Source: an uncultured Candidatus Saccharibacteria bacterium
GTDB taxonomy: Bacteria; Patescibacteriota; Minisyncoccia; Phycocordibacterales; UBA5272
NCBI GenBank assembly: GCA_964538815.1
Contig: CAZIHL010000001.1
Span: 1,070 to 65,069, forward strand
Length of the DNA stretch: 64,000 bases
Direction: 5' to 3'
The notes below the pieces were generated by a model. That model was given only the letters and a program-made list of their open reading frames with translations, searched no databases and was not told the origin of the DNA. Below, one piece after another: positions 161 to 63,166 of this stretch (within the stretch, counting starts at the first letter, position 1; every line of letters starts with the position of its first letter). The position numbers were made by a program, and so were the translations under genes.

Positions 161-3100
161 ATGAAAAGTAAAAATAATAGCAAAGATATATCATTGAGAG
201 ATTTTTTACTTTCTTTTACTAAAAAGAAAAAAATCGATTATGTAAATCATATAAAAGTCTTTAAAAAAGACCCTAAGTTCAAGCCTTTTAGAGCATTACT
301 TTTAATTTGGATCATTTTTACTTTATCTGTCGGTTCTACAGGTTTATTTACTTTTCTGAATATAAATAATGCACATTCACAAATAGAATTTAAAATGAAA
401 ACAGGTTATTATCAAGGAACTGGTAAAACATTATCTATTTCTGGATTTGGCTTTTCTCCACAAATGATAATCATAAAAGCTGATACAGCAGCGGGGTCTG
501 CTATCTGGAAATCAATTTCTATGCCAGAAGGAGAATATGCTTATTATGGAAATGCAACAGCGAATGTTTCAGAAAATCAACTTTCATTAGATTCAGATGG
601 TTTTACTGTACAAGTAAATCCTGATGTAAATTCATTGAATGTTCGTTATACTTATATAGCATTTTCTGGAAATGATTGTTCTAGTAACGGTATTATGTGT
701 ATAGGTAGTTATCTCGGAGATGGTTCCACGGATAAAAGTATAAATAATGTAGGATTTCAACCAGATCTCGTTTGGGTAAAAAGATCAGGTGCAGCGGCTG
801 GTAATTTTAGGACTTCGGCTATGACTGGATTAAACTCTTCATATTTGTCTGGAGTTGCAGATAATAATACAGGACTTCTTATAAAATCACTAGACATAAA
901 TGGTTTTACCGTTGGAGTATCAAACAACACAAATGGTGGTAAATTTTATTATGCGGCATTTAAAAAAGCTTTAAATGTTTTAGATGTTGGTCAATATGCA
1001 GGAAATGGTGTGGACGGTAGATTTATAAATACAGTAAATATTCCAAGTAAAGCTCCTTCTTTTGTATTAGTTAAACAAAATGGAACGAACCCTGCAGCCT
1101 TTAATATACCAGAAGATTATGGAGATTTTTCTGCGGCCACATCCTTAACAGCAAATTTTTCTAGCGGCATAAAAGAGTTAAAGAATAATGGTTTTAATGT
1201 AGGTACTTCATTTTTTACAAATGGTTCTGGAAATGGTTATCAATATTTTGCTTTTGCAGAAAATACTTCTCAATCAACAAATGGTTCTTTTACTATGCAA
1301 TTTGGTTCTTATGTTGGTAATGGGACCTCTCAAATTATAAATAATATTGGCTTTACACCAGATCTTGTATTTATAAAATCTTACTCTACTAATGACTATG
1401 CTATTTGGAGTACTAGATTAAATAATAATATGTCTTATTATTTTGGTCTGTCTTCAGCGGGAATACCTAATGCTATAACAGATATGTCTAATAATAGTTT
1501 TTCTGTTGGGAATAATAGCGTCGCCAATGCAAATGGTGTAACATACGAGTACATAGTTTTTGGTAACGCCACTAATCCTATAGATGGAAATAAAGCATCT
1601 GATTTTGTTATTGGAGCATATACTGGAAATGGATTAAATAGACAAATTAATAAATTAAATATAAAACCAGATCTATTGGTTTTAAAACAAACAGGAAATA
1701 CCATATCTGCTTGGTCTAGTTCTAATATGCCAAATAACACAACAGCATATTTTTCTGCATCAGCAGATAGTGTAGGAGGAGGTATAATATCTAGTTTAGA
1801 TACTGATGGATTTAGTATAGGAAATTCTTCAACTGTAAATACTTCTGGGCAATTATATAATTTTTTTATATTCAAAAAAGGGTCTGGTAATTTTGATGTG
1901 GGTAATTTTATTGGTAACGGTGCAATTCAAGATATAACAAATATAACACCTACAACCACTCAAATAGATTTTCAACCAGATTATGTCTGGATAAAGCATG
2001 ATGGAGCTCAAAGAGCTGTGCATACTGTAAATGATCCAAATCTGGGACTTGATACTTTACATTTTACAAATAATGCAAAATTTTCAAATGGAATCACAGC
2101 AATGCTTCCAAATGGTTTTACTGTAAATAACACTGCATTTGTAAATACATTAAATCAAAATTACAGATTCGTATTATGGAAAGCTTCTACACCTACAACT
2201 TCTCCTGATATGCCAGTTGGTATATCACCAACTAATACCAATATTAATTTAAACCCAACGCTAATTGGTTCAAATTATTCTAATCCTAATCCACATTTAA
2301 GTACTATTTGGGAAGTTTCTACTGATCAAAATTTTAATAATATAGTTTGGACGAGAACGTCCACTAGCTCAGAAATAACTACAATTATAAATTCTTCTAA
2401 CGGTATATTTTTAAATGACTTATCAGGAGAAGAAAAGCTAAAACATGATACAGAATATTTTATGAGATTAAAATACTCTAATGGTATTTATTCTGATTGG
2501 TCCATACCAATATCCTTTAAGACTAATAAAATTGATAAACTAACTAATATAACACCCTTAGATACTGAGGTTATAAATACATTAACACCAACTTTTACAA
2601 CTTCTAATTTTAACGATGGAGAAATAGGGCATACCGCATCTTCTTCAAGGTTACAAATAAGCACAAGTATAGATTTTTCTAAGGTTGTTTATGATACAAA
2701 TATAATTCCATATACAAATTCATTTACTATACCCAAAGCAGTTCTTTCTGATCAGACAGTGTATTATTGGAGAGCTCAATATATGGACTCGGATAATAAG
2801 TGGTCAGAATATTCTACTCCAACAAGAATATTAATATCAAAAACAGCAGAACTTTCTGTAATGCCATTGTTTGGAAATACAGTAATAGATAAAAACGATA
2901 ATGTAAACATAGATACTCAAATAAAATCTTCCGATGGACTTCCAGTGAATAATGCGAATGTGACTATAAATATATATAATCCATTAGGAACAAAAATAGT
3001 TTCAGATGCCTTAATGAATTATATAGCATCATCAAAAGGTATATATAGATATAATTACACAATACCAAATTCTACAGGAAGTTATCTTTATGAGATTTCT

Positions 3101-6100
3101 GTATCTACAAGTACATATACTGGTTTCGGGGCTGCTAATTTTGAAGTAAGAAGTTTACAACAAGACATAACTTCTGTAAAAAATATATCCACTTCTGAAC
3201 AGATAGCTCAAACTAATTCTAGAAATGAAATAAATAATATAAAGACGCAATTAAAAGCTGGAATATTGGACGCACCAAAAACTTCTAAATTAGGTAATTC
3301 TGTTACTATAAAATATAGAGCACAGAGTGGTTTATATGGAATAAATTCTCCAAAATTAAATTTATATGACGCTTCTAATGTGCAAAGAATAGTAAATGCT
3401 AATATGGTAGAAATAGGTACAACTGGCGTTTATACTTATGACTTTTTATTACAGCCAAATTGGGGCACTGGTTTTTTCACAATTTTAGCATCAGAAGATA
3501 CAAATAATACTTCTGATAACACTCAACTTTTTGTTGGTAATAATGATATAGATTCTTTAGCTAATTCAGTTTCTACAATTTCTACAAAAATAGACAATTT
3601 ACAAATGAATATGGATATATTAATAGGGGCAATGATTGTTACACAATCAAGTGTGGATGACATATCTCCTACAAACGATTCTTTTATAACAACACTTACT
3701 AATACTACTGATGATTTTTATAAAAATGCAGTTCTTACTTTTACATCTGGAGTTTTGAATGGTCAATCAAGAAGAATATCTTCATATTCTGGCTCTACTA
3801 AAAAAATAATATTATATCCTTTCCTAACTTCTGTACCTACTTCTGGCGACAACTTTACAATAGTTAAACAAAATGTAGCGGTAGAAGAACAATTACAATC
3901 ACACGATAATTTAGAATCTAATTTTAGATCTGATATTACAAATAGACTTACAAATTTACAAACATCAGTTGATAATATATATTCTTTGTTGCAAACAGTT
4001 GATACGAATTTGGATAATATAACAAATAGTATAAATAATATAAGAACTTCTCAAACAAAAAATTATAAAGTGAAACTATCGGATGTTTCTCAAGTACAAG
4101 CTGGACAAGTATATAGAACAAAATTAACTATTTTAGATTATGAATCAAATCCTGTAGATTCTCCTTCTTTACCAGCAGTATTCATATACGATTCAGCAAG
4201 AAATCTAATAGTAAATTCTTCTTCTATGACTAGATTATCAAAAGGAGTATATGAATATACGATAAATATACCCGCCTCAGCTATTAATGGTTTATGGGAG
4301 ACTGTAGTAGATACAAATCTCGGTGGTTCTGATAATCTGTCAACTAATGATTATTGGCAAGTAACAGGTGCTCCAGCTCAAGTTTTGATAAATTCCATGT
4401 CAAACTTAACAGTGCCTAATATTGGAGCAAATATAACAATAACAAATGAAGGCGGCGCTCCTTTTGAATATCAATATGAATGGTGCGTAGTAGAGACTCA
4501 ATCAAATCAATGTGGAGGTGATGATGATATTTATTATGCTTCAGCAGCGAAACTTATTCAAAATGGAGATAGTTTTAATACCACACTTACTGCAAATGTT
4601 AATAATCCTGGTAATTATATCTTTAAACTATTAGTATATTATGGAACAGAATCCTCAGCATCTTCTAGGACTTTTACAGCGATATCTGGCAATAATAATC
4701 CTATTAATACTCAAAATAATTCATTCGGAAATTATTATTCAGGTAGTAGTAATTTAGCTTCTCATGATAATATTTATAATGAATTAATAAAAGCAAAAAA
4801 TCAATTAGATTTAAATGCACAAAAACTTTCTAGAGTTCTAGATCAGTTAGGTGTTATGAATCCATCTTTACAGTCTTTATTAACTATTAATACAGACAAT
4901 CTAAAAGAATTAAAAGATATACAAAACAAAGTATCAGATTTAAGAGCTGTGTCTGTGACTACCAGAAAAATAGTAGAGCAAAAATCTACAGAACCAATAG
5001 TTGAGACTTATATGAAGTTTAATTCTGTAGAAATACATTTTTTAATTACAAATCCTTCCGAAAGTCCTAAAACTTTAAAATTTAAGGCTTATTTACCTGA
5101 AGAGGCAAAGCCAGAATATATAATGGATCTAAATGGTCTAAATTTAGATTATGATGCTAATGTTAAAACTTATTATGTTTATGGAGACATAACTTTAAAG
5201 GGTAAAGAGTCGATAACTAAGAAGATAGAAATGAAAGATATTTGGATTTTTGATGAGCAAGTAATAATAAATATTAAAAAACAAGCTAATGATCTTTTTT
5301 CTACATTAGATAAGACTCAATATCAGGCGCAAGGTTTAATATTAAAAAATAATATAGAAGAATATATTTTATCTATATTAAATACACAAGATAATAGTTA
5401 TTCTTCCCCACAAGAACATATAGTAGTCTATAGAGAAAATAAAGAAAAATTTGCTAGAGTAGAAAGTGAATTAAATAAACTTAAAGATTTAGTAGTCCAA
5501 GCTGGGACAGCGCAAAACATGGTAGGTAAAGTAGGCGGTATTCAGACATTTGCAACTTGGGGCATTATACTTGCTATAGTGTTTGGTTTTGCCATAATGG
5601 CAGCTATTATATTTGCTATGTGGAGACATCAAATTGCTTTCATTTCAGAAATGAAAGATGTTCCACAAAGTAAAATTTACAATCATACCAAAACAAAAGA
5701 AGACCATATTGAAAGATACGGTATTATTAATAGGCGTAATAGGCAAATAAATATAAGAACTATTATAAGAAATATAATATTATTTTCTTTAATATTAGGA
5801 TCTAGTTTATTATTTTATTCTAAATATACATATATTTTTAATAAAATATTTAAATCTTCCACTACAAATAATGATGACTTAAATCATATTTATACAACAA
5901 ATAGTACTCAAAAAGATAAAAATGTTTTATCTAATAATGATGAATCAATATCAACAATATCTACAACAACACAGAATATAGAAAATAATAGTATTAATTT
6001 AACAAAACAATTGTCTTCCTCATCTTCGATTTCAGAAGCTATCTCGACCAATATGCCTAAATTAAAAATTATAAATACTCCGACAGGTTGGCTTAATGTT

Positions 6101-6256
6101 AGAAAAGAGGCAGCTATTGATAGTGAAATTCTTTTAAAAATTTATCCAAAAGATGAGTTTTATTTTAAGGAGAAATTGAATGGTTGGTATATGATTATAT
6201 TAAAGAATAATAGTGTTGGATGGGTAAATGAAAAATATGTAGAAGTAATTAAATAA
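161..6256 (+). CDS. Giant (2031 aa) membrane-anchored surface protein. N-terminal signal-anchor TM, six ~100-aa tandem repeats, FN3/Ig-like beta-rich segments, two coiled-coil-like N/L/Q-rich segments. Near the C-terminus: TM helix, R/K-rich loop, second TM helix, S/T/N-rich linker, then an SH3b-like domain.
   Basis: Single uninterrupted ORF. Hydrophobic stretch FRALLLIWIIFTLSVGSTGLF near the N-terminus. Repeats share G-x-Y-x-G-N-G ... GF-x-PDLV-x-[IV]K ... A-x-W ... SLD-x-DGF-x-VG ... Y-x-Y-x-AF. FN3-like signature YYWRAQYMDSDNKWSEYS. TM helices WGIILAIVFGFAIMAAIIFAMW and IILFSLILGSSLLFYS. C-terminal GWLNVRKEA...GWYMIIL...GWVNEKYVEV resembles the SH3_3 (bacterial SH3) fold. Confidence 0.8.
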   Translation: MKSKNNSKDISLRDFLLSFTKKKKIDYVNHIKVFKKDPKFKPFRALLLIWIIFTLSVGSTGLFTFLNINNAHSQIEFKMKTGYYQGTGKTLSISGFGFSPQMIIIKADTAAGSAIWKSISMPEGEYAYYGNATANVSENQLSLDSDGFTVQVNPDVNSLNVRYTYIAFSGNDCSSNGIMCIGSYLGDGSTDKSINNVGFQPDLVWVKRSGAAAGNFRTSAMTGLNSSYLSGVADNNTGLLIKSLDINGFTVGVSNNTNGGKFYYAAFKKALNVLDVGQYAGNGVDGRFINTVNIPSKAPSFVLVKQNGTNPAAFNIPEDYGDFSAATSLTANFSSGIKELKNNGFNVGTSFFTNGSGNGYQYFAFAENTSQSTNGSFTMQFGSYVGNGTSQIINNIGFTPDLVFIKSYSTNDYAIWSTRLNNNMSYYFGLSSAGIPNAITDMSNNSFSVGNNSVANANGVTYEYIVFGNATNPIDGNKASDFVIGAYTGNGLNRQINKLNIKPDLLVLKQTGNTISAWSSSNMPNNTTAYFSASADSVGGGIISSLDTDGFSIGNSSTVNTSGQLYNFFIFKKGSGNFDVGNFIGNGAIQDITNITPTTTQIDFQPDYVWIKHDGAQRAVHTVNDPNLGLDTLHFTNNAKFSNGITAMLPNGFTVNNTAFVNTLNQNYRFVLWKASTPTTSPDMPVGISPTNTNINLNPTLIGSNYSNPNPHLSTIWEVSTDQNFNNIVWTRTSTSSEITTIINSSNGIFLNDLSGEEKLKHDTEYFMRLKYSNGIYSDWSIPISFKTNKIDKLTNITPLDTEVINTLTPTFTTSNFNDGEIGHTASSSRLQISTSIDFSKVVYDTNIIPYTNSFTIPKAVLSDQTVYYWRAQYMDSDNKWSEYSTPTRILISKTAELSVMPLFGNTVIDKNDNVNIDTQIKSSDGLPVNNANVTINIYNPLGTKIVSDALMNYIASSKGIYRYNYTIPNSTGSYLYEISVSTSTYTGFGAANFEVRSLQQDITSVKNISTSEQIAQTNSRNEINNIKTQLKAGILDAPKTSKLGNSVTIKYRAQSGLYGINSPKLNLYDASNVQRIVNANMVEIGTTGVYTYDFLLQPNWGTGFFTILASEDTNNTSDNTQLFVGNNDIDSLANSVSTISTKIDNLQMNMDILIGAMIVTQSSVDDISPTNDSFITTLTNTTDDFYKNAVLTFTSGVLNGQSRRISSYSGSTKKIILYPFLTSVPTSGDNFTIVKQNVAVEEQLQSHDNLESNFRSDITNRLTNLQTSVDNIYSLLQTVDTNLDNITNSINNIRTSQTKNYKVKLSDVSQVQAGQVYRTKLTILDYESNPVDSPSLPAVFIYDSARNLIVNSSSMTRLSKGVYEYTINIPASAINGLWETVVDTNLGGSDNLSTNDYWQVTGAPAQVLINSMSNLTVPNIGANITITNEGGAPFEYQYEWCVVETQSNQCGGDDDIYYASAAKLIQNGDSFNTTLTANVNNPGNYIFKLLVYYGTESSASSRTFTAISGNNNPINTQNNSFGNYYSGSSNLASHDNIYNELIKAKNQLDLNAQKLSRVLDQLGVMNPSLQSLLTINTDNLKELKDIQNKVSDLRAVSVTTRKIVEQKSTEPIVETYMKFNSVEIHFLITNPSESPKTLKFKAYLPEEAKPEYIMDLNGLNLDYDANVKTYYVYGDITLKGKESITKKIEMKDIWIFDEQVIINIKKQANDLFSTLDKTQYQAQGLILKNNIEEYILSILNTQDNSYSSPQEHIVVYRENKEKFARVESELNKLKDLVVQAGTAQNMVGKVGGIQTFATWGIILAIVFGFAIMAAIIFAMWRHQIAFISEMKDVPQSKIYNHTKTKEDHIERYGIINRRNRQINIRTIIRNIILFSLILGSSLLFYSKYTYIFNKIFKSSTTNNDDLNHIYTTNSTQKDKNVLSNNDESISTISTTTQNIENNSINLTKQLSSSSSISEAISTNMPKLKIINTPTGWLNVRKEAAIDSEILLKIYPKDEFYFKEKLNGWYMIILKNNSVGWVNEKYVEVIK
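392..2200 (+). repeat. Six in-frame tandem repeats of about 300 nt (about 100 aa) inside the giant surface-protein gene (approximately aa 78-680).
   Basis: The peptides GFGFSPQMIIIKAD, GFQPDLVWVKRSG, NIPSKAPSFVLVKQNG, GFTPDLVFIKSYS, NIKPDLLVLKQTG and DFQPDYVWIKHDG recur at roughly 100-aa spacing. Each is followed by a matching block: A-x-W, then S-LD-x-(D/N)GF-x-(V/I)G, then Y-x-Y-x-AF. Confidence 0.7.
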
Positions 6257-6260
6257 AATT

Positions 6261-6692
6261 ATGCTATTCAAAGATATATTTAATAAAATATTTATATTAA
6301 CAATAGGGCTTATATTACCTATAATTCTTATTATTTTAGTAAAAATAGTGGGTTATTCTGAGATAGTGGAGGAATTAGCTAAAACATTAATAGTTTTATT
6401 TTTAATATTAAAGTTATCTTTATACAAAGATAAAATATTTTATAGTATATATTTTGCTATTCTTTTTGGGCTTTCAGAAAATATTTTTTATTTAAAAAAT
6501 ATTTTTGAACTTGGCAATTTAAATATTTTTTTTATGAGGTTTGTTTGGGTTATACCAATGCATATAGCTACAATGCTGATATTAACATTATCGGGGACTG
6601 TTAAAAGATGGTTTATTATAATAGGGTTTATATTAGCTATAATAGTTCATATATTGTTTAATAATATAATTGTAAATATTATAGTACATTAA
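6261..6692 (+). CDS. Small polytopic membrane protein, possibly a CPBP/PrsW-like intramembrane metalloprotease.
   Basis: About four hydrophobic helices in 143 aa. EELAK (EExxK-like) sits at a helix end and VHILFNN (HxxxN-like) near the C-terminus. A conserved His lies in MHIATM, but no clear FxxxH motif. It starts 4 nt after the giant protein's stop codon. Confidence 0.3.
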   Translation: MLFKDIFNKIFILTIGLILPIILIILVKIVGYSEIVEELAKTLIVLFLILKLSLYKDKIFYSIYFAILFGLSENIFYLKNIFELGNLNIFFMRFVWVIPMHIATMLILTLSGTVKRWFIIIGFILAIIVHILFNNIIVNIIVH

Positions 6693-6711: not shown

Positions 6712-6741
6712 TTGACAAGCCATATATTATTGTGATATAAT
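6712..6741 (+). promoter_or_regulatory. Sigma70-type promoter: TTGACA (6712-6717), 18-nt spacer, extended -10 TGTGATATAAT (6731-6741).
   Basis: Near-consensus -35 and extended -10 with correct spacing, about 40 nt upstream of the 6782 ORF. Confidence 0.6.
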
Positions 6742-6781: not shown

Positions 6782-7333
6782 TTGAGAAATATTAACATAA
6801 TCGTATATGCATGCGATTTTAATAAAGACTTGGGAACAGTAGGACATGAGACCAAAGAAAGGTTATCAAAAGCATTTACTATTATAAATAGTAAACCAGC
6901 TTTTTACAGAATTTTCTTTGGGGCAGGTACTGTGCCAGACACTGGATTTACTGGCAAAGAAAGTATGTCCAGGGATTTTGAGGACATACTAGAAGATGCT
7001 GGATACTTTAGAAATCCTTTTTTTAAAAATATTTTTACAAAAGGAGAAAATCAAGTAGAGGTTATTATTTCTGAAACTGAGGCTTGGGGGACATTCAGGG
7101 AAACAGAGTCTATTATGGATTCTCTGGACGAGCCTTTCGGAAAAGAAAAAGTGATAGCAATTTCCAGTAGCTATCACATTCCTAGAATTAAATTTATTTG
7201 GTGGTTTATGCCGAAAACGAATATTAAATTTGTTTCGGTACCGATGCCTTTTCCTTTGAAAGGGAAAATATTAGAACCACTAAGATACCTAAAAGTTTTA
7301 TTTTTGGGTATGAATAAATTGTTTGGGGTATAA
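6782..7333 (+). CDS. DUF218 (YdcF/SanA/ElyC-like) envelope-associated protein. The frame begins at TTG with no in-frame ATG for about 60 codons, so the start is uncertain.
   Basis: The IVYACDF...GHETKERLSKAFTII N-terminal block and the later SSSYHIPRIKFIWWF motif resemble the DUF218 fold. The promoter above is placed correctly. Confidence 0.4.
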   Translation: MRNINIIVYACDFNKDLGTVGHETKERLSKAFTIINSKPAFYRIFFGAGTVPDTGFTGKESMSRDFEDILEDAGYFRNPFFKNIFTKGENQVEVIISETEAWGTFRETESIMDSLDEPFGKEKVIAISSSYHIPRIKFIWWFMPKTNIKFVSVPMPFPLKGKILEPLRYLKVLFLGMNKLFGV

Positions 7334-7343
7334 AATTTATTAC

Positions 7344-7370
7344 AAATAACCACTTCTGTGGTTATTTTTC
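7344..7370 (+). terminator. Intrinsic terminator hairpin after the DUF218 gene.
   Basis: 10-bp stem (acaaataacc AC ttct GT ggttatttt) followed by a T-run. It covers the GTG at 7358, which argues that the downstream gene really starts at 7427. Confidence 0.55.
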
Positions 7371-7426
7371 ATTTCTTAATATTTACAAAAATATTAAGAA
7401 TAATTTGGTATTATATATTTATAAAT

Positions 7427-8191
7427 ATGAAAAATTTTTTAATAACAATTTTGATTCTATTTTTAATAATTATTGCTGGATGGTTTGTATTTTGGCATTT
7501 AGGGGTAAAAATTAATGGCTATGGATTAAATAATGAAAATGCAGTATTAAATCAAGATAAAAATTCTATAGATATAAAAAATAATTCTTCATCTACTGTA
7601 GAAACAATTGGAAATACTTCTACAAATGCTGTAGTTATTAGACAAACAAAAGATCCTGCTACAGGAGAAAGAGTTCCAAGTAGATTTGCTTGTGTAGGAG
7701 AAGGTTGTGATGGAAGTATGTCGGGCGAAAATAATTTTACTGTCGTAAGAGTTCCTTTAATAAAAGATGGGGGAGATATTGGTTGCAATGCGGGTATATT
7801 TTATGCTCCTCATGTAGTACCAAAAACAAGTGCAGTGCTTGATGCTACATATAGAATGCTTTTTGATATTAAACATGATCCAGAAATAAAAGAAGATGGA
7901 TTTAGGAATACTGTCGCAGGAGCTACAAAGTTATTTTACGATCATGTGATTTTAAAAAATGGAGTTGCTAGAGTTTACCTTGCAGGACAAATGACAAGCC
8001 CGGGTACATGTGCTGATCCCGAAATGAAAGCTCAAATAGAAAGTGCAGTATTTCAATTTGATAATATTACAAAGCTTGAGGTGTACCTAAATGATAAAAT
8101 ATTTGATTGGTGTACTATGGATATGTCTGGTGGAGTGGAAGGAGCTTGTAAAACTGGAAATAAAAATTGGGTAGTTACAAAAGGGGAGTAA
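7427..8191 (+). CDS. Secreted or membrane-anchored hypothetical protein with a Cys-rich mature part. The true start is probably the ATG at 7427, not the upstream GTG at 7358.
   Basis: MKNFLITILILFLIIIAGWFVFW is a signal-anchor. TGgTATTAT extended -10 at about 7406-7414. Eight Cys in the mature region. Confidence 0.5.
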   Translation: MKNFLITILILFLIIIAGWFVFWHLGVKINGYGLNNENAVLNQDKNSIDIKNNSSSTVETIGNTSTNAVVIRQTKDPATGERVPSRFACVGEGCDGSMSGENNFTVVRVPLIKDGGDIGCNAGIFYAPHVVPKTSAVLDATYRMLFDIKHDPEIKEDGFRNTVAGATKLFYDHVILKNGVARVYLAGQMTSPGTCADPEMKAQIESAVFQFDNITKLEVYLNDKIFDWCTMDMSGGVEGACKTGNKNWVVTKGE

Positions 8192-8398: not shown

Positions 8399-8920
8399 TT
8401 ATTCATGTTTGTGTATTTTTTTAAAGTCCTTTTTTAGTCTATATGTTTTAAATATCTTTAAATTTAGTGATATATAGAAAATATATATTGATATTAATAT
8501 AGAAGCTAATACATCGTAAGTATCATGTACTCTCAGATAAAGTCTGGCAGAAATTATAAAAATAAGCCAAAGCGTAGCAAAAATCTTCAAGAATAGCTTA
8601 TGAGATTTCTTTTTATCAAATCTTGATATATAAAATAGTACAAGAAAAGTGACCATAGCTGCAGCCACATGGCCAGAAGGGAATGCATAACTATTTTCTG
8701 TTACCATCGCTAATAAACTTCTGGGTTTTTGAATAATAAATTTTAAAGCTATAACAATACCCATCGTTATAGAGTAGTTAAAAAGTATAAACATAGAGAG
8801 TCTCTTTTCTTTTTTATAAAAGTAGACAATTAAACAAACTAAAGTTGTAGCTATAACCATCATTTTTTCTCCGCCAAGCATAGATATAGCATTAAAAAAG
8901 TCGAAAAGGTATTGATTCAT
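8399..8920 (-). CDS. PAP2-family membrane phosphatase (undecaprenyl-diphosphatase or lipid phosphatase type).
   Basis: Polytopic membrane protein with the PSGH motif (AFPSGHVAAAMV) and the downstream SR...H phosphatase signature (ISARLYLRVHD). Confidence 0.6.
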   Translation of the reverse strand: MNQYLFDFFNAISMLGGEKMMVIATTLVCLIVYFYKKEKRLSMFILFNYSITMGIVIALKFIIQKPRSLLAMVTENSYAFPSGHVAAAMVTFLVLFYISRFDKKKSHKLFLKIFATLWLIFIISARLYLRVHDTYDVLASILISIYIFYISLNLKIFKTYRLKKDFKKIHKHE

Positions 8921-16724: not shown

Positions 16725-16797
16725 GCCGGGATAGCTCAGTTGGTAGAGCGCTTCCCTGAAGAGGAATAGGTCGCCAGTTCGAGCCTGGCTCCCGGCA
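16725..16797 (+). tRNA. tRNA-Phe (anticodon GAA).
   Basis: Cloverleaf: acceptor GCCGGGA/TCCCGGC, D-arm GCTCAGTTGGTAGAGC, anticodon loop CTGAAGA, T-arm GGTCGCCAGTTCGAGCCTGGC. No encoded CCA. Confidence 0.85.
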
Positions 16798-17674: not shown

Positions 17675-17746
17675 GCTCTCGTAGTTAAATGGATATAACT
17701 CCTCCGTCCTAAGGAGGGTTTGTGGGTTCGATTCCTGCCGAGAGCA
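17675..17746 (+). tRNA. tRNA-Arg (anticodon CCU).
   Basis: Acceptor GCTCTCG/CGAGAGC, anticodon stem CCTCC/GGAGG with loop GTCCTAA, T-loop GGTTCGATTCC. Confidence 0.8.
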
Positions 17747-24703: not shown

Positions 24704-26674
24704 CTAGTAGATATTCGGTGGATTTATCTCTAATTTAAAATCAGAGAGAAGTGCTGTGATTTTTTTTGCAAATTGAGATGGAATTATTTTTCCATCTTTT
24801 TCTTTTTGCCAAATTTCCTTTTTTATAATCATAGTTGCTATTTGATTATCAGTTTTTTTGTCTATTTTATATGTGATATTTTCCTTTTCCAATTTTTCTT
24901 CTTTAAAAATCTTATCTAATATTTTTTCTATCTCTCCTTTCATTTTAATTTCTTTTTTATCTAGTTTCCATTTTAAAATATTTGAGAATGGGGGAAGTGA
25001 AAGCATTTTGCGAGTTTTGATTTCTTCTTCTAAAAATCCTAAAATGTTTCCATCTTTTATATACTCCCATACACTTTGCTCTGGTAGGCGAGTTTGAACA
25101 ATTATTTTCTCTTTAGTATTTATTCTTTCTTTCATTTCTAAACAAATATTAAATATTTTTTCATCAATATTTATTTCTGGTATAGAAAAAAGTGAATCAA
25201 GGGAAATAATGGCTCCCAGATAGCACTCAAAATCTTTATTTAAAAAGTTTAAAGCCAAATCTGTTCCGATTAAAATACTAGCAGAGCTTTCTTTTTGCCA
25301 ATTTTCTAATATTTTATTTATATCTTTTTTAGTTTTGACATTACTGCTATCAAGTAGAAATGTTTTATATCCAACTTCTTTTAAATTCTTTTCTATACCT
25401 TCTACTCCAACCCCAAGAGTATTCATTCGCCAACTATCACAATTTTGACAAGTGAGATTTTCAGACTTTTTAAGTTCTATTTTGTTTTTGCAATTACTAC
25501 AAATGTAAATTCGTTCATTATTTTCTTTTTTAAAAAGTGTGTATGGTTTTTCACATTTTTCACATTTAAAAATAGTATTACAATCAGCGCAAATAGTCTC
25601 GGTATAAAGTCCTTTTCTTTTTGCATATAGAAATACTTTTCCATTATTTGATTTTATTTTTTCCAATTCTTCTATTAATTTATTAGAAAAATATACAGAG
25701 CTATATTTACTATTCTTTTCTTCCTTTATTTTTCTTATTCTATTTTCTATATCCTCTTTTTCTAGGATATCTTTTGTAAGAGAAATTATTTCAAAATTAT
25801 TTTTCTCATTTTTTCCTAAATAACTTACTTTTTCAAAAGTCTCAAGAGAAAGAATATTTCCACCTAAAATTAAATTTAGATTTAAATCATTTGCTAGTTT
25901 CTTAATAATTTCTCTTGCGTCAATCTGTTTCTTTTTTGTATGAGTAAAATAATTAAAAGAATTTTCTTTTTCTATTATCACACTTTCAAGATTTATTTTT
26001 TCTTTTAAAATAATAGGAAACAGGGAAGGAGTTGAAAGGATTAATAACTTTTCTCTTTCTTTTATTTTTTTTAAATTTTCATTTAATATTTTTTTTGTTT
26101 GTCCAGAATAAAGACTTAAAATATTTTGAGAGTCAAATGATTTTTCTATATATTTTTTAGTTATTTCTAAATCATTGATTGTAGGAAAAAATATAACAGA
26201 GGATTTATTTTCTTTTTCATTTGTTTTTATTTTTTCTAAATATTTTTTATGTCTTTCTTTAAAATTTTCTAAATATATTTCTTCAATATATTTTCTTTTG
26301 TTATTTTCTTTATTTTTTCTATATTTATCTAAAATCCCATTTTCTTTAAAAAGAAATTCAGGCAAATAATTTTCTAGTATCTCACTTTCTTTTACTCCAA
26401 GAAGTATTGCTGATTCTGAAACACTTTTAAAAACTTCCTCGTTTAAAAAATTATCAATAATAATATTTTCTATTTTTTTTATAATAAATTTTGAAGATTT
26501 TATATCTATTTTTTTTTCTTTTAATTCTTTTATGAATCTAACAATACCTAAAATTTTTCTATGTCTAATTTTTATTTCTACAAGTCCTCCTAGAGAAATT
26601 CTTTCACTATGAAAATATGTAAAATAGTTTTCTGGTAATCCTTTAGCTATGGGAATAATCTCTAAAATATACAT
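24704..26674 (-). CDS. priA: PriA-like primosomal protein N'. The N-terminal DNA-binding domain and the four-Cys-pair zinc region are kept, but helicase motifs I and II are degenerate.
   Basis: PriA-like N-terminus (IIPIAKGLPENYFTYF...GGLVEIKIRHRKILGIV). LILSTPSLFPI matches the PriA motif Ia/II region, with DEEH replaced by IEKEN. Zinc-ribbon cluster CADCN..CEKCEK..CSNCKN..CQNCDS. Conserved priA-def-fmt order. No GxGKT/S Walker A anywhere. Confidence 0.55.
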   Translation of the reverse strand: MYILEIIPIAKGLPENYFTYFHSERISLGGLVEIKIRHRKILGIVRFIKELKEKKIDIKSSKFIIKKIENIIIDNFLNEEVFKSVSESAILLGVKESEILENYLPEFLFKENGILDKYRKNKENNKRKYIEEIYLENFKERHKKYLEKIKTNEKENKSSVIFFPTINDLEITKKYIEKSFDSQNILSLYSGQTKKILNENLKKIKEREKLLILSTPSLFPIILKEKINLESVIIEKENSFNYFTHTKKKQIDAREIIKKLANDLNLNLILGGNILSLETFEKVSYLGKNEKNNFEIISLTKDILEKEDIENRIRKIKEEKNSKYSSVYFSNKLIEELEKIKSNNGKVFLYAKRKGLYTETICADCNTIFKCEKCEKPYTLFKKENNERIYICSNCKNKIELKKSENLTCQNCDSWRMNTLGVGVEGIEKNLKEVGYKTFLLDSSNVKTKKDINKILENWQKESSASILIGTDLALNFLNKDFECYLGAIISLDSLFSIPEINIDEKIFNICLEMKERINTKEKIIVQTRLPEQSVWEYIKDGNILGFLEEEIKTRKMLSLPPFSNILKWKLDKKEIKMKGEIEKILDKIFKEEKLEKENITYKIDKKTDNQIATMIIKKEIWQKEKDGKIIPSQFAKKITALLSDFKLEINPPNIY

Positions 26675-29209: not shown

Positions 29210-30388
29210 ATGACAATAGTAATTTTTATAATAATCCTACTCGCTTTAGTTATTATTCACGAAGCGGGACACTTTTTTGCAGCTAAATCTTCAAAAGTAA
29301 GAGTAGATGAATTTGCTTTTGGATTTCCTCCAAGACTTTTTTCAATTAAAAAAGGTGAAACAACTTATGCTTTTAATGCTTTACCTCTCGGTGGGTATGT
29401 AAAAATCCATGGTGAAAATGGTGAAGATGAAAAAGAAGGAAAGGAGAAAGATAAAAGAAATTTTGCTAATAAACATCCTCTCATAAAAATATTTATATTG
29501 GCTGCAGGAGTATTAATGAATTTAGTGCTTGCATATATTTTAATCACTGTCTCAGTATACATAAGTACAACTTTTGCGATAGATAGAGAAAGTCATGAAT
29601 ACAAAACTTTTGTAGAAGAGGGCAGGATAAAAGATGAAAGAGTAATCATTGCAAATGTTATTAAAAATTCTCCAGCAGATAATGCAGGACTAAAGCCGGG
29701 AGACAAAATAGATAAAATTTATTCAAACAATGAAGATGCAGCAGGTAAAGTGTCAGTTAAAAAATCTGTAAATCTCGACGCGTCAGGCGATGAAATAACT
29801 GAAAAAGTTTCTAAAATAATAAATAATATTGATAGTAAATTTAGTGATTCTATTACCATAGTGTACAAAAATAGTAAAGGTGAAGTAAATGAATCAACTA
29901 TCGCTGGGATATATAATCTTGAAGGAAATAAAGATAAGAAAATGGTTGGGCTTTCTTTTGGAAAAGTCGCAACAATAAATTTAAAGTTTGGTGAAGCTAT
30001 AAAAATAGGTTGGGAAAAGACAGTAGAATTTACCAAGCTTACGCTTATTGGATTTAAAGATTTATTTGTTAATTTATTTTCTAAAGGAGAACTTTCTGAA
30101 AATATTGCTGGACCTGTTGGAATGGTAAGAGAAGTTGGAAATGTTCGCGAAATGGGATTCAATTATTTACTTTTGTTCACTGCTGTACTTTCTATTTCAC
30201 TCGCTGTATTTAATATACTTCCATTTCCAGCTCTTGATGGAGGAAGAATATTATTTGTTTTAATTGAATGGATAACAGGCAAAAAGATTTCTGAAAAATG
30301 GCAAAATATTTTAAATGGTGCCGGGTTTCTACTACTCATACTGCTAATGATATTTGTAACAGTGAAGGATGTGATGAAGTTGTTTTAA
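29210..30388 (+). CDS. rseP: RseP-type site-2 zinc metalloprotease (M50) with a PDZ domain.
   Basis: HEAGHFFAAK (HExxH) in the first TM, a PDZ-like segment (ANVIKNSPADNAGLKPGDKI), and a C-terminal LDGG motif (FNILPFPALDGGRIL). Confidence 0.8.
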   Translation: MTIVIFIIILLALVIIHEAGHFFAAKSSKVRVDEFAFGFPPRLFSIKKGETTYAFNALPLGGYVKIHGENGEDEKEGKEKDKRNFANKHPLIKIFILAAGVLMNLVLAYILITVSVYISTTFAIDRESHEYKTFVEEGRIKDERVIIANVIKNSPADNAGLKPGDKIDKIYSNNEDAAGKVSVKKSVNLDASGDEITEKVSKIINNIDSKFSDSITIVYKNSKGEVNESTIAGIYNLEGNKDKKMVGLSFGKVATINLKFGEAIKIGWEKTVEFTKLTLIGFKDLFVNLFSKGELSENIAGPVGMVREVGNVREMGFNYLLLFTAVLSISLAVFNILPFPALDGGRILFVLIEWITGKKISEKWQNILNGAGFLLLILLMIFVTVKDVMKLF

Positions 30389-63082: not shown

Positions 63083-63166
63083 GCGTCGGTGGTAGAGTGG
63101 TCAATTACAACAGACTGTAAATCTGTCGCCCTTCGGGCTACGTTGGTTCAAATCCAACCCGGCGCA
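63083..63166 (+). tRNA. tRNA-Tyr (anticodon GUA), class II with a long variable arm.
   Basis: Acceptor GCGTCGG/CCGGCGC, anticodon loop CTGTAAA, variable arm CGCCCTTCGGGCTAC, T-loop GGTTCAAATCC. Confidence 0.8.

Follow-up and report, generated by a model that had tools for sequence, protein, structure and literature searches.

How uncultivated, ultra-small Patescibacteria build their envelopes and attach to hosts is largely obscure, and the few tractable strains have so far implicated no more than type IV pili and 'adhesins' without a name (PMC10633639, PMC11665869). A stretch of 64,000 nucleotides from an uncultured Candidatus Saccharibacteria bacterium (contig CAZIHL010000001.1 of assembly GCA_964538815.1, positions 1,070 to 65,069 of the forward strand; hereafter the 64-kb window, G+C content about 25–34%) holds a concrete candidate that is widespread across lineages. 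Close to the start of the window lies a gene for a protein of 2031 amino acids (aa), which an earlier reading made from the sequence alone (the sequence-only reading) had put forward as an undescribed cell-surface system. What does this giant gene encode, how would its product be held at the cell surface, and what would act upon it there? The answer that we consider probable, without regarding it as secure, is a two-gene envelope cassette made up of a surface fibre tethered to membrane and wall, which would serve as an adhesin or as an envelope spike, and a dedicated processing protease of the PrsW family. The PrsW-family gene, which lies directly downstream of the giant gene, is the most informative feature of the locus and was absent from the sequence-only reading.

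The giant gene and the PrsW-family gene behind it

The two genes, and a promoter match that follows them, are placed in the window as follows.

161..6256, + strand: giant gene (open reading frame listing; identical protein and ~35 full-length homologs)
6261..6692, + strand: mini PrsW-family intramembrane protease gene, 143 aa (Pfam; starts 4 nt after the stop of the giant gene)
6712..6741, + strand: consensus sigma-70-type promoter, TTGACA-18-TATAAT, 12/12 with TG (consensus match only)

The open reading frame (ORF) of the giant gene starts with ATG, and its coordinates are those claimed by the sequence-only reading. A homolog search returned an identical record together with ~35 full-length relatives at 33–55% identity, which indicates that this very large ORF is a real gene. 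A few of the relatives bear source names, such as Candidatus Pacebacteria or Patescibacteria group. In one homologous locus (L013, 1-4657) the gene appears broken into several ORFs in the metagenome-assembled genome, by frameshifts or assembly error, and an intact PrsW gene stands after it at 4169-4657. Kyte-Doolittle analysis of the giant protein gave three hydrophobic segments (residues about 43-66, 1791-1823 and 1867-1886), and NCBIfam gave no match for this protein, for the PrsW gene or for the neighbouring gene in a second homologous locus (L005). The proposal of an undescribed system has so far stood: our literature search found no paper naming DUF7483, the family of the repeats described below, and none combining PrsW with Patescibacteria.

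The downstream gene matches PrsW (PF13367) at 28.1 bits against a cutoff of 23.5, covering profile positions 52-175 of 196. Residues E37, E38, K41, S72, E73, R93, H101, H130 and N134 are invariant in all seven orthologous neighbours, the conserved PrsW motifs being EExxK, SE, H and HxxxN. With these catalytic motifs intact, the enzymes look active. Members of the PrsW family typically have eight transmembrane (TM) helices (PMC3482391), whereas the 143 residues encoded here contain about 4-5 hydrophobic segments, and we regard the protein as a minimal core form of the family. The 64-kb window encodes one PrsW gene, one anchor module (defined below) and one DUF7483 array.

The promoter match falls in the 90 nt that separate the PrsW gene from the ORF after it (6782..7333, weak DUF218 match), which suggests that the giant gene and the PrsW gene form a two-gene unit of their own. 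A two-hexamer promoter scan upstream of the giant gene gave nothing over background; by eye only, an extended -10-like TGTATAAT was noticed at 123-130. Downstream of the PrsW gene, the search for an intrinsic terminator came up empty.

The anchor module and its pairing with PrsW

The C-terminal end of the giant protein comprises five elements, of which the first, here called the anchor module, includes the first TM helix (TM1).

4997..5623, + strand: anchor module, aa 1613-1821, comprising a beta-sandwich (1613-1691), helices (1699-1795) and TM1 (about 1797-1821), signature GGIQTFATWGI...MWRHQ (AlphaFold2, conservation, profile)
5624..5758, + strand: basic loop, inferred to be cytoplasmic, aa 1822-1866 (45 aa; 10 K/R vs 5 D/E; disordered in the model)
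5759..5821, + strand: second TM helix (TM2), aa about 1867-1887 (hydropathy; AlphaFold2 helix 1865-1897)
5828..6058, + strand: S/T/N-rich disordered linker, aa 1890-1966 (52% S+T+N; predicted local distance difference test score, pLDDT, about 30)
6059..6250, + strand: SH3b (SH3_3-type) domain, aa 1967-2030 (AlphaFold2 pLDDT about 95; PDB 4KRT match; Pfam sub-threshold)

The last helix of the anchor module (1750-1832 in the model) continues unbroken into TM1, and no Pfam or NCBIfam model covers the module. Within the clade of close homologs TM1 is as conserved as the folded domains (0.70), whereas TM2 (0.35-0.36) and the loop (0.27-0.28) are not, a pattern consistent with a sequence-specific contact within the membrane. 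Neither a Cys nor any other motif for lipidation or attachment adjoins TM1.

The sequence-only reading had described this end of the protein as a membrane hairpin with an R/K-rich loop, followed by an S/T/N-rich linker and a terminal SH3b-like domain. Loop and linker have the stated compositions, and nothing in the topology rejects the hairpin. Among the homologs scored, the segment after TM1 is net positive in 26/26 (+2 to +13 where it is a terminal tail, +1 to +13 where it is a loop) and the segment after TM2 is neutral or acidic, a charge pattern that supports an out-in-out topology and, with it, a predicted location at the cell surface. The hairpin is not general, however, as about half of the clade has no TM2 and ends in a short K/R-rich tail right after TM1; to judge from these homologs, TM2, linker and SH3b form an optional add-on module. 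The predicted SH3b domain is a small beta-barrel of seven short strands with the SH3 fold, and a search with the terminal 78 aa hit the SH3_3 repeats, of solved structure, by which an endolysin from a clostridial phage binds the wall (PDB 4KRT, E 1.9e-7); the Pfam SH3_3 family (PF08239) is precomputed for many orthologues. Since the window encodes MreB and two penicillin-binding protein transpeptidases, the cell makes peptidoglycan, which the SH3b domain would most likely bind.

Is the PrsW gene a chance neighbour? In seven homolog loci fetched by exact protein look-up, a PrsW orthologue lies immediately downstream in 7/7, including one without a Pfam hit on record, and the other neighbours are unrelated from locus to locus. 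Scanning GTDB species genomes with a profile of the anchor module (aa 1614-1824) gave 25 loci in Patescibacteria, labelled Falkow-, Kaiser-, Zambryskii-, Pacei-, Curtiss- and Moranii-bacteria (several other labels are probably unreliable automated ones), and 6 loci of Omnitrophota and allies. PrsW lies next to the 3' end in 23 of the 24 assessable species-level Patescibacteria loci (in 18 it reads in the same direction, in 3 it converges within 21-46 nt and in 2 it lies about 1 kb away), and within 2.8 kb in 0/6 of the Omnitrophota-type loci. The latter (L033-L038, Omnitrophota and Makaraimicrobium) carry the module at 31-34% identity, with tails after the TM helix that are acidic rather than basic; one of them is Candidatus Velamenicoccus archaeovorus LiM (L034, anchor match at 3001-3573).

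The anchor module also occurs apart from this giant protein. An exhaustive profile search found it in 903 cluster representatives (480 at E <= 1e-30), whose lengths range from about 180 to 4,250 aa, against 7 fragments from a word-indexed search for homologs of the module by itself. Sampled members include proteins of ~920 aa with tandem SH3_3 only and a 3,034-aa protein with LamG and SH3_3. The 920-aa subfamily, which lacks DUF7483, was followed in 80 metagenomic loci, 67 of them assessable (>=700 nt after the stop): PrsW lies within 1.33 kb in 59/67, mostly convergent, and within 3 kb in 3 more, with none in 5, counts that are not fully independent as some loci are near-duplicates from related samples. 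The presence of PrsW beside proteins with so different a head indicates that it tracks the anchor module (juxtamembrane stalk and TM1) and not the head. PrsW and the anchor are thus coupled in evolution, and we infer that the protease cleaves the anchor.

A PrsW protease beside a membrane protein recalls regulated intramembrane proteolysis, since in Bacillus subtilis it is PrsW that makes the site-1 cut in the anti-sigma factor RsiW (summarised in PMC3482391). Were the giant protein an RsiW-like sensor, a ligand or stress would trigger site-1 cleavage by PrsW, an M50 protease (one is encoded in the window at 29210..30388) would cut at site 2, and a signal would be released into the cytoplasm. 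As with RsiW, a PrsW protease with its catalytic motifs kept would act on a protein that crosses the membrane once and has a domain outside the cytoplasm. Moreover, in two proteins of about 630 aa (P0181 and P0185) the extracytoplasmic part of the anchor module (profile about 6-170) stands N-terminal to a cytoplasmic GGDEF diguanylate cyclase, so that the module may also serve as a sensor or dimerisation domain. We nevertheless hold this explanation to be improbable. The cytoplasmic parts are short, contain no recognised domain and are the least conserved of all, and the tails differ widely; no gene for a sigma factor or other regulator recurs beside the giant gene in the seven homolog loci; and M50 proteases are near-universal housekeeping genes. 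The putative substrate, in turn, is a giant surface fibre without an anti-sigma domain, the protease is a minimal form, and the linkage is to the substrate gene and not to a sigma-factor operon.

Zhang et al. 2012 (PMC3482391) assign to PrsW the release of polymorphic toxins, some of them borne on long filamentous proteins, and the locus might accordingly be a contact-dependent system of this kind that delivers an effector, with PrsW freeing a toxic or lytic domain. This we consider very improbable, as PrsW is here a separate 143-aa protein and not an N-terminal fusion to the toxin protein, the giant protein ends in an SH3b domain or a short basic tail with no toxin domain, and the seven homolog loci share no immunity-like neighbour.

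Together with PrsW/RsiW and the PrsW toxins, the closest mechanistic parallels are C-terminal sorting systems (LPXTG, PEP-CTERM, GlyGly-CTERM and, above all, the MYXO-CTERM signal of myxosortase), in which a surface protein carries a signature, a TM helix and a basic tail and has a membrane-embedded protease of its own as partner. Myxosortase is a CPBP-type intramembrane protease that acts on such a tripartite signal (PMC11980579), and the CPBP family is distantly related to PrsW (PMC11980579, PMC3482391). The tail-only homologs of the giant protein have the look of such a signal; the window protein, with about 210 residues after TM1, does not, and the NCBIfam sorting-signal models gave no match for its C-terminal 251 aa beyond noise. 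A PrsW-coupled modular fibre would differ from the sorting systems, from PrsW/RsiW and from the PrsW toxins in its one-to-one pairing, its folded unit, its lack of an attachment residue, its optional hairpin and SH3b, and its minimal protease. Whereas a sorting enzyme serves many substrates, one gene is matched to one adjacent gene within the 64-kb window; a module of roughly 210 aa plus TM helix takes the place of a 30-40-aa tag; and neither an invariant Cys nor any other residue is available for attachment.

Head and stalk of the predicted fibre

The N-terminal part of the giant protein consists of an export signal and six repeats, the latter located with a profile hidden Markov model (HMM) that was seeded on the three obvious copies and iterated over the protein.

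161..379, + strand: N-terminal export signal, aa 1-73, with K-rich n-region, h-region 45-66 and putative signal-peptidase site A71-H72-S73|Q74 (hydropathy; conserved small-x-small motif)
383..676, + strand: DUF7483 repeat 1, aa 75-172 (our HMM, Pfam PF24299, AlphaFold2 pLDDT >90)
683..973, + strand: DUF7483 repeat 2, aa 175-271 (our HMM, Pfam, AlphaFold2)
968..1267, + strand: DUF7483 repeat 3, aa 270-369 (our HMM, AlphaFold2)
1283..1573, + strand: DUF7483 repeat 4, aa 375-471 (our HMM, AlphaFold2)
1592..1885, + strand: DUF7483 repeat 5, aa 478-575 (our HMM, AlphaFold2; best PHROG tail-fibre stretch 477-572)
1880..2191, + strand: DUF7483 repeat 6, aa 574-677 (our HMM, AlphaFold2)

The hydrophobic export segment had been taken for a signal-anchor, that is, for a permanent attachment. 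A small-x-small motif 2-4 aa ahead of repeat 1 is kept in nearly all aligned homologs, and several homologs have short classical signal peptides in place of the long N-extension. A conserved AxA-type site after a hydrophobic segment makes a cleavable signal peptide likelier than a permanent anchor; the protein is probably cut after Ser73, and its mature form would then be held by the C-terminal end only.

The other three copies came up at E 1e-10 to 1e-19, as the only further matches of the HMM within the protein, in agreement with the six tandem repeats of ~100 aa that had been counted by eye, and the proposed consensus (GxYxGNG, GFxPDLVxxK, W, DGFxVG, YxYxAF) corresponds to nearly invariant columns among 63 homologs. 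The repeat does belong to a named family, which the sequence-only reading had not recognised: it is DUF7483 (PF24299, 86.6 bits against a cutoff of 27, in five stretches), a catalogued family with no assigned function that is present on all listed homologs, and it also matches phrog_24898, 'tail fiber protein' (E 3e-25). It maps to no well-characterised adhesin or S-layer family and, in the PDB searches described below, to no solved structure. A loop between repeats 1 and 2 holds Cys173 and Cys180 within the conserved consensus GSDCTSxGxMCVG, and a second ectodomain pair, Cys1442 and Cys1451, lies in the conserved EWCVVxxQxNxCGG of the stalk; pairs placed in conserved motifs of the clade fit an exported protein.

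An AlphaFold2 model of the head (aa 70-691, from a 63-sequence alignment that left out proteins >2,100 aa) has a mean pLDDT of 94.2 and a predicted TM-score (pTM) of 0.92 over 622 aa, and is all-beta with about eight strands per repeat. So high a pTM over this length indicates that the six modelled repeats pack into one rigid body and are not strung together like separate beads. Against the PDB, Foldseek gave the head TM-scores of around 0.1 only, and a sequence profile of the head and its flanks gave 0 hits among PDB sequences. The head thus appears as a beta-sandwich array without a close solved relative, its nearest, distant sequence relatives being phage receptor-binding proteins; there is also a weak fold likeness to the receptor-binding domains of phage tail fibres and tailspikes.

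This kinship raises the question of whether the locus is a prophage remnant with a captured tail-fibre gene. Besides the PHROG match, tblastn aligned the head repeats with virion structural proteins of pelagiphages, cyanophages and roseophages. These matches, however, reach no more than 24-31% identity over a portion of the array, and the phage proteins mostly have two to three DUF7483-type repeats against six here. Although the repeat family is the same, the giant protein is cellular, membrane-anchored and chromosomal: it carries an export signal, TM anchors and an SH3b domain, the genes around it that were examined are housekeeping genes of the chromosome and include none from a phage, and the giant gene and PrsW are conserved as a pair across Patescibacteria. 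Of the explanations considered, a prophage remnant is the one we find hardest to credit.

Within the clade alignment the head is among the most conserved parts (0.63-0.75), and the variable parts are the helical spacers, an insert (aa 1041-1125), the loop, TM2 and the linker. The array is kept as a unit, distant matches all spanning about 30% of the query. In those more remote DUF7483 proteins the only signal is N-terminal, and the C-terminal domains are different ones, for instance type IX secretion system (T9SS) sorting domains, LamG or peptidases; the C-terminal TM helix is found only in the close clade. Conservation of this kind speaks for a head that has a structural role or a ligand that is itself conserved, and against host specificity that evolves fast. 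The sequence-only reading had proposed a role in attachment or host interaction; the surface location that it presupposes is supported, the role itself is a possible one, and a conserved head does not fit a host-specific binder.

Head and anchor are joined by a long stalk.

2228..2845, + strand: two tandem Ig/FN3-like modules, aa about 690-790 and 795-895 (sub-threshold Pfam, homolog annotation, mutual similarity)
2873..3160, + strand: MG2-like beta-sandwich, aa about 905-1000 (Pfam MG2, 37.9 bits vs cutoff 32.8)
3281..3535, + strand: lineage-specific insert, aa 1041-1125, flanked by short helical segments (column occupancy 0.21 in the clade alignment)
3638..3865, + strand: conserved small beta-barrel, aa 1160-1235 (AlphaFold2 pLDDT about 90; conservation 0.71; no Pfam family)
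3878..4057, + strand: coiled-coil segment, aa 1240-1299 (single 60-aa helix in the model; heptad z = 10.6)
4067..4687, + strand: two Ig/MG-like beta-sandwiches, aa 1303-1402 and 1406-1509 (AlphaFold2 pLDDT about 90)
4763..4981, + strand: helical spacer, aa 1535-1607 (AlphaFold2 helices; weak heptad signal, z 2.0-3.7)

The two Ig/FN3-like modules, recognised already by the sequence-only reading, are supported weakly from three sides: Ig_Rha78A_N matches aa 818-889 of the window protein at 22.1 bits, under the Pfam cutoff of 27.4, and is precomputed for most homologs, and the modules align with each other at 27% identity (E 0.011), their conservation being 0.72-0.73. The stalk holds more beta-domains than these two, namely MG2, one barrel and three further sandwiches; Pfam reports a second MG2 stretch, at a position that it did not give. 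Foldseek matched the sandwiches to RbmA, to the MG domains of TEP1, alpha2-macroglobulin and complement, and to invasin. Only MG2 and generic MG-like folds were found; the bait region, thioester and receptor-binding domains that accompany MG domains in the Alpha-2-macroglobulin/TEP family are absent. The insert is beta-rich and, by eye, shared only with the closest homolog (P0002); it is apparently a recent domain gain in the stalk. Of the two coiled-coil-like segments that had been proposed, aa 1240-1299 bears the idea out, with other helices weaker, and at least one true coiled coil implies that the predicted fibre is oligomeric. The NxT/NxS runs that the sequence-only reading had listed as a feature are not enriched (46 NxS/T sequons against about 44.5 expected from composition), and the idea of glycosylation sequons was dropped.

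A distal binding region on an Ig-like extender stalk is also the plan of giant monoderm adhesins, such as LPXTG-anchored Ig-repeat fibres, RbmA and the invasins, and the stalk folds matched RbmA, the invasin InvE and the extender region of a large adhesion protein (Foldseek). The giant protein would differ from these in its tether, a TM hairpin and a non-covalent SH3b domain instead of a sortase linkage, in its six-repeat DUF7483 head without a solved relative, and in the coiled-coil spacers along its stalk. Archaeal stalked S-layer proteins (SlaB, tetrabrachion) are built alike in outline, from a globular N-terminus through a coiled coil to a TM anchor at the C-terminus. Compared by description, they share this overall plan, and no relationship in sequence or fold was detected; the giant protein is bacterial and has an added TM2 and SH3b and a PrsW partner.

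It is this plan of globular head, coiled coil and C-terminal TM anchor that brings in the main rival to an adhesin or spike, an S-layer-type envelope lattice in which the fibre would be a structural spike or canopy protein, rigid heads would tile the surface, stalk, TM helices and SH3b would fix the layer to membrane and wall, and PrsW would serve in its maturation or turnover. In its favour, the head and proximal domains are highly conserved and not hypervariable, there is a single copy in the 64-kb window, and the family runs across many Patescibacteria lineages, in which, according to an AlphaFold-based survey, S-layers are prevalent (10.1101/2024.05.28.596244). Even so, we think a lattice rather unlikely. 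The Pfam and NCBIfam searches found no SLH or other known S-layer domain, the anchor module carries quite different heads, which suits interchangeable tips better, and DUF7483 arrays occur also in secreted, T9SS-sorted and phage virion proteins.

The proposed cassette and its surroundings

On the reading that we favour, a tethered fibre with its own PrsW protease, the giant protein would be exported by its N-terminal signal, probably cut after Ser73, to give a long stalked surface fibre whose distal head consists of the six DUF7483 repeats. The stalk would consist of Ig/FN3-like and MG2-like extenders, barrel, sandwiches and at least one coiled coil, the last of which implies an oligomeric fibre. 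The juxtamembrane anchor module would run into TM1 and so hold the fibre in the membrane; in the variant seen here, the basic loop and TM2 would return the chain to the outside, where the disordered tether would carry the SH3b domain onto peptidoglycan, fixing the fibre both in the membrane and to the wall. PrsW would recognise TM1 or the juxtamembrane module and cleave there, for maturation, for shedding or release, or for turnover. The head would bind a conserved ligand on another cell or on the cell's own envelope, a glycan or wall polymer being likeliest.

Several points weigh against this reading. Expression, surface location, cleavage and binding are predictions from sequence and models. 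The conserved head speaks against a fast-evolving host-specific binder and fits a structural role equally. PrsW-family enzymes are hydrolases and no attachment motif lies by TM1, so that cleavage would just free the ectodomain, and in the hairpin variants it would part the ectodomain from its SH3b tether. The Omnitrophota relatives keep the module and the W..Q end of TM1 with no adjacent PrsW, and PrsW alone therefore does not explain the conservation of TM1; the extracytoplasmic part of the module is found in GGDEF signalling proteins as well. The SH3_3 score of the window protein, 24.8 bits, falls just under the Pfam cutoff of 27. Finally, the AlphaFold2 model of the C-terminal half (aa 1140-2031; pLDDT 75, pTM 0.35) is confident for single domains and of low confidence for their arrangement and for the length of the stalk.

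The distribution of the anchor module prompts a wider proposal, which we offer tentatively and judge somewhat unlikely: a hitherto unrecognised display system found throughout the Patescibacteria, with a PrsW-less relative in Omnitrophota, in which the anchor module would present interchangeable heads, among them a six-domain head akin to phage receptor-binding proteins, and cutting of the anchor by mini-PrsW would let the fibre mature, be released or be recycled. Such a system could be the basis of envelope spikes or an S-layer, or of a host-attachment organelle, in these ultra-small episymbionts, and would represent a new protease-coupled form of anchoring distinct from sortase, exosortase, rhombosortase and myxosortase. 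What the locus offers is a new, confidently modelled head, a candidate membrane-and-wall tether and a coupled protease with intact active-site motifs, and through the protease coupling what would otherwise be a 'hypothetical giant protein' becomes a system of two components open to experiment. The anchor family, with its 903 representatives, deserves an entry as a curated domain, which neither Pfam nor NCBIfam has for it.

Around the homologous loci, pilus- or pilin-like genes occur in three cases and are not conserved across loci: PilM_2 and four small ORFs directly upstream of the giant gene (L003, 4997-7968), N_methyl pilin-like genes near it (L007, 880-1800 and 5367-5912) and a T4SS_pilin cluster near it (L002, 17970-19701). 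In the window itself, two nearby envelope-related genes are found also on the organism's own contig (L001), one for a protein of 277 aa that has a TM segment at its N-terminus and a faint Germane-like match (7358-8191, + strand) and one for a PAP2-family phosphatase (8399-8920, - strand). The M50 protease (29210..30388, + strand) is a site-2 protease of RseP/RasP type with a PDZ domain; enzymes of this class follow PrsW in regulated intramembrane proteolysis in Bacillus, and the one here probably has a housekeeping role. A 656-aa ORF at 24704-26674 (- strand) matches no Pfam family at E <= 1e-5. Three tRNA genes (16725-16797, 17675-17746 and 63083-63166, + strand) are the sole Rfam matches at gathering threshold in the window, in which minus-strand genes are few and GC skew is strongly positive.

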